Source: a virus (lineage: Duplodnaviria; Heunggongvirae; Uroviricota; Caudoviricetes; Herelleviridae). Taken from it: a stretch of 34,998 nt of DNA. The notes beneath the pieces are model-generated. The model was not told where the DNA came from. It worked only from the letters and a program-made list of their open reading frames with translations, and did not search any database. A program made the translations under genes and the position numbers. Each line of letters opens with the position of its first letter. The stretch's first letter is position 1. Shown here in pieces: positions 21,730 through 34,998 of the stretch. The stretch lies in IMG/VR virus record IMGVR_UViG_2706795655_000001. The stretch is one strand, 5' to 3'.

Positions 21730-21754
21730 TAGTAGCAGGTTAGAAAACACTAGT

Positions 21755-21785
21755 AGCCCCCTAGAAATATAGGGGGCTTTTTTTT
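21755..21785 (+). terminator. Intrinsic terminator at the 3' end of the antisense HNH gene
   Basis: AGCCCCCTA-GAAATA-TAGGGGGCT then T run. Confidence 0.85.
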
Positions 21786-22272
21786 ACTTAGTAGCTGACC
21801 ACGAAACGTTATGTTTAATTCTAGAAATCGTACTATTGCCAACTCCGTATGTACTAGCTATTTCTTTTTGTACAACTCCTTTTTTTAATAGTTCTTTTAT
21901 TTCTTTTACCTGTTCTTCACTTAGTTTAGCTTTTATGTTACCACTACCGCTTTTTATAGCAGCTCGTCCCCTTGATTCTGCGTCTTTTAAGTTCTCTTGT
22001 TGTGTACCTACCTCTAAATGAGAGGGGTTAATACAACTAGGATTATCACATTTGTGTCTTATTACCATGTCTTGAGGTATGTCCCCGTTATGTATAGTGT
22101 ATACGTATCTATGAATGTAAGTAGCTCCCTGCATTCCTGTCCTAGTTATAAAACAATAACCAAAACTATCTTTAGAATGTGAAGTACAGTTCCAACAACT
22201 ATTATTGTCTATCTCGTATTCTATCCTTTTAGCGTTCCCGTGTAATTCTATATTTTCATTGATATATGGCAT
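21784..22272 (-). mobile_element. Free-standing HNH homing endonuclease with C-terminal HTH
   Basis: CWNC..GY..IHRYVY..IRHKCDNPSCINPSHLEVGT..EN; AAGGGGG RBS on minus strand. Confidence 0.9.
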
Positions 22273-22293
22273 TAATAAAGCCCCCTTTTCTCT

Positions 22294-22302
22294 ATTATAT
22301 CA
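22294..22302 (-). promoter_or_regulatory. Extended -10 sigma-A promoter for HNH gene
   Basis: Minus strand TG-A-TATAAT, same AATGTGwTATAATA context as at 7369. Confidence 0.6.
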
Positions 22303-22425
22303 CATTTAATAAATTCGCCTATAATAGAAGAAAGGCGAAAAACGAAAAATATATAAAATAGTTGTTGTCTTTTAGTAAAATACATGGTACGATGGTATCA
22401 ACTTAAAGAGAGGCGGTGTTTTGCA

Positions 22426-26886: not shown

Positions 26887-27129
26887 ATGTTAACATTAGA
26901 AGAGAAAAAAGAAATTTCAAAGGGTTTTGGTTTAAAAGTGAATGAAGTTGAGGAAATGATAACTAAAGGTGAAATAGACATGTATAAGTCATATTCAATG
27001 TTTTTCTACGATATGCACGAAAATAAAAGTAGAGATGATTTAATAAGTTTGTTGGAAAGTGGAGAAACTGCCCTAGATAATTTAGAATACTGCACATTAT
27101 CAAGCGGAAAAGTAGCGTATATTTTCTAA
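26887..27129 (+). CDS. Early hypothetical protein
   Basis: Cassette promoter + RBS. Confidence 0.75.
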   Translation: MLTLEEKKEISKGFGLKVNEVEEMITKGEIDMYKSYSMFFYDMHENKSRDDLISLLESGETALDNLEYCTLSSGKVAYIF

Positions 27130-30534: not shown

Positions 30535-30705
30535 ATGAATAAGTTCTTAAGAGCTATGGAATTAATAGAACGAGCAAACAAACTATTGACAGAGGCGGTT
30601 ATGGAAAAAGAAATAACTTATGAAGACTGGGAACAAATTCATAAGAATAGTGAAAAGAGTCTAGAGGCTTGCATAAGTATATATAATAAGGGGGTTGTTA
30701 AATAA
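30535..30705 (+). CDS. 56-aa protein (not in ORF track)
   Basis: GAGGGG RBS; TAATG coupling to next gene. Confidence 0.6.
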   Translation: MNKFLRAMELIERANKLLTEAVMEKEITYEDWEQIHKNSEKSLEACISIYNKGVVK

Positions 30706-30947
30706 TGAAAACAACAATACATTATGCAAACGAATATAATATGTATGATTGGTTTAATAACATTGCAGAAAGAAAAATACAAGTGGAGGATATAGACGCA
30801 GGAAGTTTAATAAACATATATAAAGCATTTATTGAAAAATACGAGTTTGAAAAGGATTGGAGAAGAGGCAAGTCAGAAATAACACCAGCATTGCAGGGAG
30901 CTATTGCAATAATAGAAAAGTATATGTTAAAGCGTTTAGAGAACTAA
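30705..30947 (+). CDS. Hypothetical protein
   Basis: AAGGGGG RBS. Confidence 0.7.
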   Translation: MKTTIHYANEYNMYDWFNNIAERKIQVEDIDAGSLINIYKAFIEKYEFEKDWRRGKSEITPALQGAIAIIEKYMLKRLEN

Positions 30948-31847: not shown

Positions 31848-31886
31848 ACATCACCTATTATATATAAAGGAGCGTGTACAATTAAA

Positions 31887-32069: not shown

Positions 32070-32229
32070 AGTCCTATTATATATATATATATAATAACAA
32101 TTTGAACGAATTAAAGCCCGGGGTTTTGTATTTCAAGCCCTGCTCACACTAGAGTATATAAGTTGCATCTATATAGAGGAGGCGGGCGCGGGCTATTAAT
32201 ATATGAAAATTTGAAAGGTGGAATATATA

Positions 32230-32403
32230 ATGCATGAAGATAAAAGCTTAGATAATTTAATAGAGGTATTACAAGAAAATGATGATATACCAGAGGTAAT
32301 GATACATGCACATGCTAGAAGGTTTTACGGGTCTGTTAATGATGATACAATAGCGAGTGTGTGGGATGATATCTATATAGTACTAGAAGCGCGTGGACAC
32401 TAA
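32230..32403 (+). CDS. Acidic hypothetical protein
   Basis: AAAGGTGG RBS before ATG 32230. Confidence 0.65.
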   Translation: MHEDKSLDNLIEVLQENDDIPEVMIHAHARRFYGSVNDDTIASVWDDIYIVLEARGH

Positions 32404-32442
32404 TGCAGAGCCTTAAAACACTAGTAGTCAACTGCAAACATA

Positions 32443-32478
32443 ACAAAAAGACTAGTAGCCCGCTGGAATACTAGTCTT
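32443..32478 (-). terminator. Leftward-facing intrinsic terminator
   Basis: Perfect 10-bp stem AAGACTAGTA/TACTAGTCTT; the T run is on the minus strand. Confidence 0.55.
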
Positions 32479-32522
32479 CATACTATCTCTTATTCACGAT
32501 GGACAGAAAACGCCCTATATAT

Positions 32523-33311
32523 AATAGACTGACAATTTTGAAAACATGAAGGTTATATCCTAATAGTAAGATGTGAGAGTTGTCAGAATATTGTATACAA
32601 CTTGCTAAACATTTTCTGTCTAACCACATGTTAAATGATATGCATGTGAAATGCAATACGTGACAAAAAGTAAAACTATTCCTAATATTCGCAATTATCA
32701 GATAACTATATTATATATAATAAGAGAATGATTATAATGTGCAGAATAGTCTGACAATTAGGATAGGTATGCTGCTGGAATAGACAGAATAGTCAGATAA
32801 CTATAATGATTATAATTTATATAATATTCTGATAATTCTAAATACTTTAGAATAGTTGTCTAAATAGTCAGATAATTATAGTTATTCTAAATAAGCCGAT
32901 AGCATGTATTTATTAGAATAGTCTGACAATTTAGTAAGACTTATATTGTAATCATTATAATGTACTGACAATTCTGAATACTTGACATATATAATAGAGT
33001 GTGGTATATATGCGGGAATGTCTAGATTGTAGTTATTATACTGTATATAATATTCTGACAATTTACAAATACCCAAAAATACTCGGAGCCGGGAAGCCTT
33101 GCTATGACTGGATTTAAGGAGCCATTTTGCTTGTACGGGGTTCTAGTGACCTAGTTAATACACTTATGAGGGGTGGAGCTTAAAAACGCTCTACGAGGCT
33201 GTGAGAGGCTTTAAAATAGAATTTGACAAACTAATAGATATGTGGTATATACACACGCGCTTGTACATGTGTTATATAGAGGGAATAGTTGTATACAATA
33301 TTCTGAAAATT
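32523..33311. promoter_or_regulatory. Cluster of 11 CodY-box-like 15-mers in a non-coding AT-rich region
   Basis: Matches to AATTTTCWGAAAATT at 32523 (11/15), 32578 (12), 32693 (12), 32745 (12), 32788 (11), 32823 (13), 32863 (12), 32917 (12), 32959 (12), 33049 (13), 33297 (14). The repeat is certain; its binder is inferred. Confidence 0.6.
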
Positions 33312-33348
33312 TAGAATAGTTTTATTTTAATTATTTGTCATAAAGGGC

Positions 33349-33377
33349 TTGTCAATTGCGTATAATAGTATTAAGAT
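33349..33377 (+). promoter_or_regulatory. Sigma-A promoter
   Basis: TTGTCA-17-TAAGAT. Confidence 0.6.
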
Positions 33378-33418
33378 AGAGTTAGTTAGAGCGAACGACA
33401 ACGGCTTGAAAATAGTTG

Positions 33419-33447
33419 TTGACTTTTAGTAAAGTACATATTATAAT
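33419..33447 (+). promoter_or_regulatory. Sigma-A early promoter (cassette family)
   Basis: TTGACT-17-TATAAT followed by the cassette RBS. Confidence 0.9.
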
Positions 33448-33480
33448 AAAATTAACTTAAGAAAAGGGAGATGTTGAGAT

Positions 33481-34092
33481 ATGAAAAAAGTAAATGCACA
33501 CGCTATGGAATTAGGTTTAGAGGTTATTGTAGAAACGAAAGGCGGTTTCACTATCGAAGGGAAAATCATTGACTACACTATGAGCCGTAATTATATCTGG
33601 GTTGAAAATAAGGTTGATATCTACCAAATTAATACAGAGGTTGACAGTGTATTCGAAGCCTCTGCAATGCATGTACCTGCTGATATGGTTGAGTCTTATC
33701 AGGCTGTACTAGAAGAGGATAGCGAGGAGTATATCCGAGCTAATAGCCATACATTACCGGCGGAGGATGTCCTTACAATGAAGGAGCTAAAATCCAAAAT
33801 TAAAGAAGAACTTAAGAAGCCGGAATATAGACGCGCTGATATCGAGTCTGTCAAGGTTGCGGTATTCAATAGCTCGGAGGGTTCTGTCCGTATTGATGGG
33901 GAATGGATTGAGAATATTGAATGTTGGGATTGTGAGGTACACATAGAGCTTGACAATGGAGAACCTGTATTCGAAACGTTCGGAACGTTCTACAATGAAG
34001 AGGACGCGGTTAAATATGCTCGTGATATGCGTGTCAAGTTAAACCGCGCTACTTACGATATTACTGATAAGGTTTGGGTATACACTTGCTAG
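33481..34092 (+). CDS. Acidic early protein, 203 aa
   Basis: Cassette promoter + AAAAGGGAG RBS; no motif recognised. Confidence 0.8.
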   Translation: MKKVNAHAMELGLEVIVETKGGFTIEGKIIDYTMSRNYIWVENKVDIYQINTEVDSVFEASAMHVPADMVESYQAVLEEDSEEYIRANSHTLPAEDVLTMKELKSKIKEELKKPEYRRADIESVKVAVFNSSEGSVRIDGEWIENIECWDCEVHIELDNGEPVFETFGTFYNEEDAVKYARDMRVKLNRATYDITDKVWVYTC

Positions 34093-34132
34093 TATGCCCA
34101 GCTAGTACTATAGTTATAATATTCTGACAATT
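34086..34132 (+). promoter_or_regulatory. Sigma-A promoter with a CodY-like box over its start site
   Basis: TTGCTA-17-TATAGT (34086-34114); AATATTCTGACAATT at 34118-34132. Confidence 0.5.
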
Positions 34133-34151
34133 TAAAAGGAGATGTTTATAT

Positions 34152-34310
34152 ATGGAAAAGTTAATTCGTGAACGTGCAGAGGCTTTATTAAATAGTAAAG
34201 GTGCTAACATGGGTAATAACGAACTATTAGCATATTGCAAATCATTTTCCCGCGCTCATGATTGGGATTTAGACTTGACTATCGATATTATGTTCAAAGT
34301 GTTTAGATGA
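34152..34310 (+). CDS. 52-aa protein (not in ORF track)
   Basis: AAAAGGAG RBS; MEKLIRERAEALL. Confidence 0.65.
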   Translation: MEKLIRERAEALLNSKGANMGNNELLAYCKSFSRAHDWDLDLTIDIMFKVFR

Positions 34311-34343
34311 TATTAAAACTACTATATAAAGGGGTTGTCTATT

Positions 34344-34643
34344 ATGATAAACAAATATAATGCTGGTGACTTGGTTGTGTGTGATTGGGGTTCGAATAAG
34401 GGTAAATTATATATCATTATTAAGGTATTGACAGATAAGAATATATATGCTTGTAAAGAGTATCATATGATGGATTCTAAATACTATGCATATAATGACA
34501 TGACTCTAACACCTTGTACTATGGAGTATTTGTCCGCGCTTCCTGTCCTGCATCTTTCCGCACTTAAGACAGACCTTCGCAATATGAAGTTTTATAACTC
34601 TGCTGGAATGGTAATGAATGCAGTTAATAAGGTATATGTTTAA
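34344..34643 (+). CDS. Hypothetical protein, possible N-terminal SH3/KOW-like barrel
   Basis: AAGGGG RBS 9 nt before ATG 34344; YNAGDLVV..KGKLYIIIKV. Confidence 0.6.
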   Translation: MINKYNAGDLVVCDWGSNKGKLYIIIKVLTDKNIYACKEYHMMDSKYYAYNDMTLTPCTMEYLSALPVLHLSALKTDLRNMKFYNSAGMVMNAVNKVYV

Positions 34644-34693
34644 TCATAAATATAATAGATTGTCAACTACTATATATAAGGGAGCTGGTATAT

Positions 34694-34861
34694 ATGAAAC
34701 GTATTCTAAAGGCTATTACAGGGCTATATAATCGCTTGGTATGTAAGGAGGCTAACACTATTGATAATACTATAGAGCGCATGCAGGAGGGCGTGAGAGC
34801 CTATAATACTACTATTGATGTTATTATTAGTCAGAATGCTAATCTATTAAATAGTAAATGA
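34694..34861 (+). CDS. 55-aa protein (not in ORF track)
   Basis: AAGGGAG RBS; MKRILKAITGLYNRL. Confidence 0.55.
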   Translation: MKRILKAITGLYNRLVCKEANTIDNTIERMQEGVRAYNTTIDVIISQNANLLNSK

Positions 34862-34998
34862 ATATCTCAATCCATAAATATGCTAGATTGTCAACTATTA
34901 TTTTGTCAACCCTTTTCTATATTCAATTTCATAGATATAACCCACCCCGTCCTATATAGACCATACGTTCGGGGTACCTCCATGCCACTCGCCTACCC

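Follow-up and report, generated by a model that had tools for sequence, protein, structure and literature searches.

An array of twelve 15-mers that resemble the operators of CodY, the host's global nutrient-sensing regulator, lies near the right end of a 34,998-nt stretch of viral DNA (hereafter the window; IMG/VR record IMGVR_UViG_2706795655_000001, Herelleviridae). The 15-mers, with consensus AATAKTCTGACAATT, span 32523–34132 and are placed in the non-coding leader of the phage's direct terminal repeat (DTR), about 400 to 2000 nt from the physical end. By the analyses described below, the array is judged to be real, conserved and of a protein-binding type. In the most likely reading, to which we assign a probability of roughly one half, the 15-mers would be operators through which host CodY gates the terminal repeat's early promoters.

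Each site was scored by its base matches to the 15-nt CodY consensus AATTTTCWGAAAATT, and 24-mers were scored against the 24-nt CodY double consensus. The array sites match AATTTTCWGAAAATT at 11–14 of 15 positions, which leaves 1–4 mismatches and places them within the range of functional CodY sites, which have up to about five mismatches. The twelve sites are the following.

32523–32537, plus strand: site 1, AATAGACTGACAATT, 11/15 to the CodY consensus.
32578–32592, minus strand: site 2, AATATTCTGACAACT, 12/15, in the opposite orientation; its core TTGTCAGAATATT is invariant in nine phages.
32684–32707, plus strand: site 3, 24-mer AATATTCGCAATTATCAGATAACT, 18/24; its 15-mer, at 32693, scores 12/15.
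32736–32759, plus strand: site 4, 24-mer AATGTGCAGAATAGTCTGACAATT, 19/24; 15-mer at 32745, 12/15.
32779–32802, plus strand: site 5, 24-mer AATAGACAGAATAGTCAGATAACT, 17/24; 15-mer at 32788, 11/15.
32814–32837, plus strand: site 6, 24-mer AATTTATATAATATTCTGATAATT, 19/24; 15-mer at 32823, 13/15, invariant in nine phages.
32854–32877, plus strand: site 7, 15-mer AATAGTCAGATAATT at 32863, 12/15; 24-mer 18/24.
32908–32931, plus strand: site 8, 15-mer AATAGTCTGACAATT at 32917, 12/15; 24-mer 18/24.
32959–32982, plus strand: site 9, 24-mer AATGTACTGACAATTCTGAATACT with two CTGA cores 9 nt apart; 15-mer at 32959, 12/15.
33049–33063, plus strand: site 10, AATATTCTGACAATT, 13/15.
33297–33311, plus strand: site 11, AATATTCTGAAAATT, 14/15.
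34118–34132, plus strand: site 12, AATATTCTGACAATT, 13/15, between the stop codon of gp1 (the first gene of the DTR) and the ribosome-binding site of gp2.

Successive sites are spaced 55, 115, 52, 43, 35, 40, 54, 42, 90 and 248 nt apart. A sequence-only reading of the window had described eleven such 15-mers in about 800 bp and a twelfth at 34118, and all twelve were recovered at these positions with the scores given above. We compared the counts with 2000 dinucleotide-preserving shuffles of the stretch 32480–34140 itself (1.66 kb, GC 0.34). With up to three mismatches to the CodY consensus (at least 12/15), ten sites were observed against 0.19 expected, and with up to two mismatches four were observed against 0.012; the observed counts were reached in none of the 2000 shuffles. 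The sequence-only reading, which had proposed such a comparison with AT-matched shuffles, had estimated a chance expectation of about 0.03 for sites at 13/15 or better, and this estimate was of the right order of magnitude. Allowing up to two mismatches, the phage's own consensus AATWKTCTGACAATT gave 14 matches in the 35-kb window against 0.75 expected, 13 of them in 32523–34132. Anchoring on the right half CTGACAATT alone gave 96 unique contexts in four genera; their left half, on which no selection had been made, emerged as A98 A92 T99 A83 T56/G35 T83 (percent), indicating that the real unit is the pseudo-palindrome AATAKTCTGACAATT.

The region is 83–87% identical to the genome start of BigBertha, vB_BcgM, BillyBob and Juglone, Bacillus phages of the genus Bequatrovirus (Bastillevirinae, Herelleviridae), and the flanking genes are 97–98% identical between BigBertha and the window. 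The BigBertha record annotates a DTR at 1–2577 and no gene in the first 1.1 kb. The boundaries of the repeat in the window are as follows.

32116–32123: left DTR boundary, motif GCCCG/GGG, with the DTR running from 32121 (GGGTTTTGTATTTC...); assigned by homology to BigBertha position 1 and its repeat 1–2577.
34990–34998: right DTR boundary, with the DTR ending at 34997; the last bases of the window match the end of the BigBertha repeat.

Because the DTR spans 32121 to 34997 by homology, practically to the last base, the comparison assigns the window to a Bequatrovirus phage of the Bacillus cereus group and makes it the right end of a genome of about 167 kb. The stretch 32523–33311 holds only short and spurious open reading frames (ORFs), and the homologous 1.1 kb of BigBertha is gene-free, in line with the earlier description of the stretch as non-coding.

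Conservation in related phages, which the sequence-only reading had named as a check, was found. In an alignment of nine Bequatrovirus leaders, identity to the window was 0.90 for the 15-mers and 0.74 for the rest of the leader, and arrays were present in four genera. The two strong promoters of the leader also scored 0.90, and random placement of eleven 15-mers reached the observed conservation in 0 of 5000 trials. Since the 15-mers are as conserved as sigma-A promoters and more so than the rest of the leader, this indicates that they are under purifying selection and functional. Whole units, each containing a 15-mer, have been gained or lost between phages while the motif itself was kept. 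In five complete relatives, the phage variant (up to one mismatch) was confined to the DTR leader, apart from one intergenic copy about 9.4 kb upstream. The segment with this extra copy (BigBertha 152900–153490) is replaced in the window by unrelated sequence at 21736–22314.

Four genera of Bastillevirinae have arrays of the same variant, and three more have scattered or clustered copies. Such arrays were found in the Bastillevirus phages CAM003, Bastille, Goe5 and Evoli and in the Tsarbombavirus phage BCP78, while the Wphvirus phage W.Ph. carries about 20 copies within a gene-free 1.6-kb stretch. Copies lie at 86, 868 and 5022 in the 5103-bp repeat of phiNIT1, which infects B. subtilis, and at 72 and 2438 in the 2669-bp repeat of phiAGATE, which infects B. 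pumilus; Bcp1 has a small cluster. The same site is thus kept across phages of B. cereus, B. subtilis and B. pumilus, which fits a slowly evolving host reader. No 15-mer cluster was detected in SPO1, Staphylococcus phage K, Listeria phage A511, Enterococcus phage phiEF24C or SPbeta, and no CodY-box enrichment was found in SPbeta. No published description of the array turned up in searches that covered CodY boxes in phages, the terminal repeats of Bastillevirinae and the motif itself. Separately, five unrelated viral contigs in IMG/VR (L028, L069, L072, L047 and L060) carry two to seven exact copies of AATATTCTGACAATT each, which in several contigs belong to a perfect palindrome of 24 bp, AATTGTCAGAATATTCTGACAATT, with a GC-rich spacer after it; the proteins of these contigs matched nothing in Pfam or among phage records. 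The perfect palindrome TTGTCAGAATATTCTGACAA was met nine times in a scan of bacterial genomes, a result uninformative as evidence on CodY: most occurrences are central to an extended GC-rich inverted repeat shared by Lachnospiraceae assemblies, and they resemble a dispersed repeat element more than promoters of CodY-regulated genes.

In an informal comparison of consensus sequences, none of Spo0A, Fur/PerR, TnrA, Rex, LexA, AhrC, DnaA and ScoC fitted the 15-mers as well as CodY. Several array sequences coincide with published predicted CodY boxes. For the codY-regulated thrC gene of Streptococcus salivarius, the predicted box is identical to the modal 15-mer AATATTCTGACAATT; the one predicted for S. 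salivarius ilvD has the sequence of site 11 (AATATTCTGAAAATT), and further variants of the phage arrays are present in the same table of CodY boxes (PMC5966866). In B. subtilis, the strong CodY site II of braB contains tATTaTCTGAcAATT and AATTgaCAGAAtATT; the reverse complement of the phage site, AATTGTCAGAATATT, matches the latter (motif 3) at 14 of 15 positions, and TCTGACAATT is common to the phage site and motif 2 (PMC4608796). The same consensus is used by CodY of B. cereus and B. anthracis, and CodY is also able to activate (PMC5633148).

A typical CodY operator consists of two 15-mers that overlap by 6 nt, which gives a 9-nt offset and a 24-nt unit, and CodY reads its operators largely through DNA shape, with only two base-specific contacts per half-site and tolerance of many variants (PMC10415144). 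We looked at the flanks of the phage 15-mers (97 unique contexts from four genera). Their likeness to a partner half peaked exactly at −9 (4.80 of 9 matches, compared with 2.5–3.6 at other offsets), with a weaker signal at +9 (4.12), and G and C were enriched at the predicted partner positions. The hexamer resembling TATAAT upstream of the 15-mers is mainly the AAT of this −9 partner (T at −6 in 79–87%, G at position 0 in 41%). The partner halves of the array are weak, with 4–6 mismatches, and the 24-mers score 17–19 of 24.

Double operators of the CodY type were also found elsewhere in the lineage. In BigBertha outside the DTR, single CodY-like sites are not enriched (18 observed, 9–18 expected), while three pairs occur at exactly +9 against at most 0.01 expected (Markov models of order 1, 3 and 5). 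The optimised 24-nt CodY operator AATTTTCWGAATTTTCWGAAAATT was matched at 22–24 of 24 positions in all five Bequatrovirus genomes scanned, perfectly in Flapjack, and the reversed control pattern gave no match. The positions are listed here.

BigBertha (KF669647) 106944–106967 (L010:1945–1968), outside the stretch homologous to the window: 24-nt double operator of the 22–24/24 set, and one of the three +9 pairs.
Flapjack 108801–108824, B4 84180–84203, vB_BcgM 102507–102530 and SWEP1 118609–118632: 24-nt double operators of the same set.

In BigBertha, the one genome in which the surroundings were inspected, the double operator ends 2 nt before the −35 element in the promoter of a gene matching PHROG 1867, annotated 'single strand DNA binding protein' (SSB). 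Site 9 of the array is placed with the same geometry at its promoter. Two further CodY-like pairs with a 9-nt offset lie at BigBertha 30685–30708 (L011:4686–4709) and 27094–27117. One of the two is about 40 nt upstream of a TATAAT promoter that lacks a −35 element, in a 1-kb gene-free region that separates a gene for an XRE-type regulator from the portal-gene side; the other is inside a gene upstream of the large terminase gene. Among the BigBertha proteins, no CodY-like helix-turn-helix of phage origin was found. Published-box identity, the 9-nt offset, conservation across genera and the double operator in relatives make the likeness to CodY operators stronger than the sequence-only reading had claimed; the reading of the sites by CodY itself is predicted from sequence.

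The array surrounds predicted promoters, which are given below; the transcription start sites are likewise predicted.

32982–33010, plus strand: promoter P1, TTGACA, 17 nt, TATATA, with TGTGG just 5′ of the −10 element; conserved in nine phages; predicted start at about 33017.
33223–33251, plus strand: promoter P2, a twin of P1 (TTGACA, 17 nt, TATATA, TGTGG); predicted start at about 33258.
33419–33447, plus strand: promoter P4, TTGACT, 17 nt, TATAAT, 11/12; the best canonical promoter, directly 5′ of gp1 and with no 15-mer downstream.

Of the promoters proposed earlier, those at 32982 and 33223 are as described, and the third, at 33349, scores weakly (9/12). P1 has nine sites upstream of it, and the last base of site 9 is the first base of the P1 −35 element. 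Site 10 is found at about +32 to +46 from the predicted P1 start, and site 11 at about +39 to +53 from the predicted P2 start. Regulatory placement is thus seen for site 9 at the P1 −35 element, for sites 10 and 11 downstream of P1 and P2, and for site 12 in the gap between gp1 and gp2. The architecture of P1 and P2 (TTGACA, 12 nt, TGTGG, TATATA) is unlike the phage's general early-promoter family GTTGTTGAC..17..TATAAT; P4, at 33419, belongs to this family, which has about 20 members in the 22–30 kb part of the window.

This layout suggests how CodY might act. Bound at site 9, abutting the −35 element, CodY would hinder initiation at P1, and bound at the single site about 30–50 nt downstream of each of P1 and P2 it would block elongation from both. 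It would also occupy one site between gp1 and gp2, whereas P4, an ordinary early promoter at gp1, would stay free of CodY. Transcription entering the genes of the terminal repeat would then track host nutrition, with repression and activation both possible.

Several observations weigh against CodY as the reader. The modal AATATTCTGACAATT keeps two off-consensus bases (A4 in 83–91%, and C11) in four genera whose leaders barely align; because CodY reads shape and tolerates variants, this uniformity needs a further constraint or concerted evolution. Most genera have about 80% of their copies in one orientation (BCP78 is mixed), which is unexpected given that a dimer on a pseudo-palindrome needs no fixed orientation. 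Between orthologous copies, the −9 partner is not conserved above background (0.73 versus 0.74). The promoter of the SSB-annotated gene has a canonical operator and not the DTR variant, so the lineage is able to keep the consensus when it is selected. Finally, arrays are absent from phages K, A511 and phiEF24C, whose hosts have CodY, and from SPO1; the array is therefore specific to one subfamily, missing from other Herelleviridae despite CodY in their hosts. The uniformity of the variant could possibly reflect an intermediate affinity, the array releasing CodY before the SSB-gene operator does as nutrients fall; other possible explanations would be concerted evolution of the repeats, or an additional constraint or binding protein acting on this DNA. 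If CodY does read the array, a broader and rather speculative picture, in which we have little confidence, is that Bastillevirinae use CodY as a two-level nutritional checkpoint, at the early promoters and, in Bequatrovirus, at the promoter of the SSB-annotated gene. Infection of a starved or sporulating host would be delayed or dormant, and amplified arrays would later drain CodY and open the amino-acid supply.

The best-placed alternative, which we regard as possible though doubtful, is that a different sequence-specific protein, either phage-encoded and conserved in Bastillevirinae or another host factor, reads the sites for the biology of the genome end: recognition for packaging or terminal-repeat formation, the start of replication, partition, or protection of the ends. 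In that case the resemblance to CodY boxes would have come about by convergence upon an AT-rich pseudo-palindrome, or would reflect deliberate competition with CodY. Such a protein would fit the strict retention of one variant and one orientation across genera, the confinement of the array to one phage subfamily and its constant position in the outer DTR, where the first copy is 72–210 nt from the physical end in phiAGATE, phiNIT1, Goe5, Evoli and BigBertha; phiNIT1 also has an inverted copy about 70 nt inside its other DTR boundary. The gain and loss of whole units between phages is likewise reminiscent of centromere or iteron arrays. However, no candidate reader was found in the DTR, as gp1 has no helix-turn-helix and the other DTR proteins no known domains. 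If the phage encoded the reader, protein and sites would usually be expected to diverge from genus to genus, and the 9-nt-offset flanks and the CodY-box identity would be left unexplained.

Cutting of the genome ends appears to use other signals. The right DTR boundary motif of BigBertha, CCCCGGGC, is an inverted copy of the left-boundary motif of the window, and in the related phage Thurquoise the termini are cut mid-way in a similar inverted GC-rich motif (PMC10043171). As the ends map to these GC-rich inverted motifs, the cut signals are separate from the 15-mers, the first of which is about 400 nt from the end motif; the 15-mers may nevertheless serve accessory recognition by the small terminase subunit. 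An iteron-type replication origin, part of the alternative that the sequence-only reading had offered, found no support. The sites are irregularly spaced (35–250 nt) without helical phasing, there is no initiator gene next to them, gp1 has no recognisable DNA-binding fold, and GC skew follows transcription, with its cumulative turn near 26–30 kb and not at the DTR. The other part, a phage protein acting at the genome end, is weakened but keeps some probability.

We consider it unlikely that the array acts mainly as a CodY sponge, in which hundreds of twelve-site arrays on amplified genomes would titrate CodY off the host chromosome and derepress genes for amino-acid synthesis, uptake and proteolysis, feeding phage production. 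The unusually close packing of the sites (twelve within 1.6 kb, and about 20 in W.Ph.), the presence of the array twice per genome, the many sites with no obvious promoter partner and the variation in copy number while the motif is retained would all suit titration. Yet one would expect a sponge to be built from the sequence of highest affinity, and the array variant has 2–3 mismatches although the lineage has a better one at the SSB-annotated gene; moreover, phiNIT1 and phiAGATE have only 2–3 copies, and several sites are at classic operator positions, abutting −35 or at +30 to +50. It is very improbable that the repeats have no dedicated binder and are duplicated promoter fragments (a −10 element plus the first transcribed bases) that form tandem weak promoters or landing sites for RNA polymerase at the entering end. 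A TATAAT-like hexamer does lie 6 nt upstream of, or overlap, many copies, which are co-oriented with the DTR genes and contain a −35-like CTGACA, but these −10 boxes have no −35 at 16–18 nt and CTGACA is followed by no consistent −10. The upstream hexamer is well conserved only in its AAT part, fitting a reading with 9-nt periodicity; at site 12 it reads TATAAT in some phages and TAGAAT in others, next to a 15-mer that is retained, and the conserved footprint is the 15-mer itself. We also rejected the 15-mer as the −35 element or transcript start of a sigma-A promoter, as no consistent partner hexamer was found on either side and P1, P2 and P4 are separate elements.

Other elements of the DTR are listed here.

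32230–32403, plus strand: small ORF, 57 aa from ATG, PHROG 36065, of unknown function; absent from the BigBertha DTR.
32448–32478, plus strand: hairpin with a 10-bp stem AAGACTAGTA/TACTAGTCTT, a variable 11-nt loop and no T run; the stem is conserved in nine phages.
33070–33215, plus strand: conserved GC-richer block of about 150 nt between P1 and P2, with no Rfam match.
33481–34092, plus strand: gp1, the first DTR gene, 203 aa, PHROG 2236, of unknown function; modelled as two small beta-barrels.

The absence of the 57-aa ORF from the BigBertha DTR suggests that gene content is variable in the outermost repeat, and the hairpin at 32448–32478 marks the point where homology of the leaders among phages begins. 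Rfam and transfer RNA scans of the region gave no matches, and the block at 33064–33225 was not supported as a structured RNA (z-score −0.26, compensatory pairs 1/40). The conserved block as listed, 33070–33215, might act as a leader, encode a small peptide or contain some other DNA signal. We considered gp1 as the protein that binds the array and rejected it, since its model (pLDDT 84) shows no helix-turn-helix and no recognisable DNA-binding fold and gave no significant fold match; the remaining DTR proteins matched no known domains. Further downstream, the element TAGATTGTCAACTAYTAT is repeated at 34648–34683 and 34876–34910, followed at 34668 by TATATATAAGGGAG, and a similar sequence, CTATTATATATAAAGGA, occurs at 31855 and 31980. 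Elements of this type may be a second class of promoter or leader.

If CodY binds the array, a large family of strictly lytic Bacillus phages would read the host's main nutrient sensor, and under the speculative checkpoint reading CodY would be the second host master regulator read by virulent Bacillus phages, beside Spo0A in phi29. This could account for medium-dependent plaquing, carrier states and spore entrapment. These phages are biocontrol candidates against the B. cereus group, and CodY binding would bear on predicting how well they work on cells that are starved or in biofilms. With its graded candidate CodY sites, the array also forms a compact natural cassette, and codY mutants exist for B. 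cereus and B. thuringiensis.

Among known systems, the array can be compared with the CodY operators of low-GC Gram-positive bacteria, such as braB site II. It shares with them the 15-nt pseudo-palindrome, box identity, the 9-nt partner signal and positions abutting −35 or downstream of a promoter, as in roadblock repression. It differs from them in its one dominant variant and orientation, and it is known here from sequence. We know of no host locus as dense as the twelve or more sites in 1.6 kb of this virulent phage's repeat. Arrays of short repeated protein-binding sites are also formed by F sopC, R1 parC and plasmid iterons, which the phage array resembles in being non-coding, variable in unit number and mostly co-oriented; here, however, the spacing is irregular, no partition or initiator gene is adjacent and the site matches the operator of a host regulator. 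Finally, phages of the phi29 family reportedly carry Spo0A boxes at early promoters and host parS sites near their genome ends (work of Meijer, Castilla-Llorente and Salas). They belong to another phage family and have a terminal protein in place of the long direct repeat found here, but the likeness is that of a virulent Bacillus phage with multiple sites for a host master regulator around early promoters near the genome end, coupling lytic development to host physiology.

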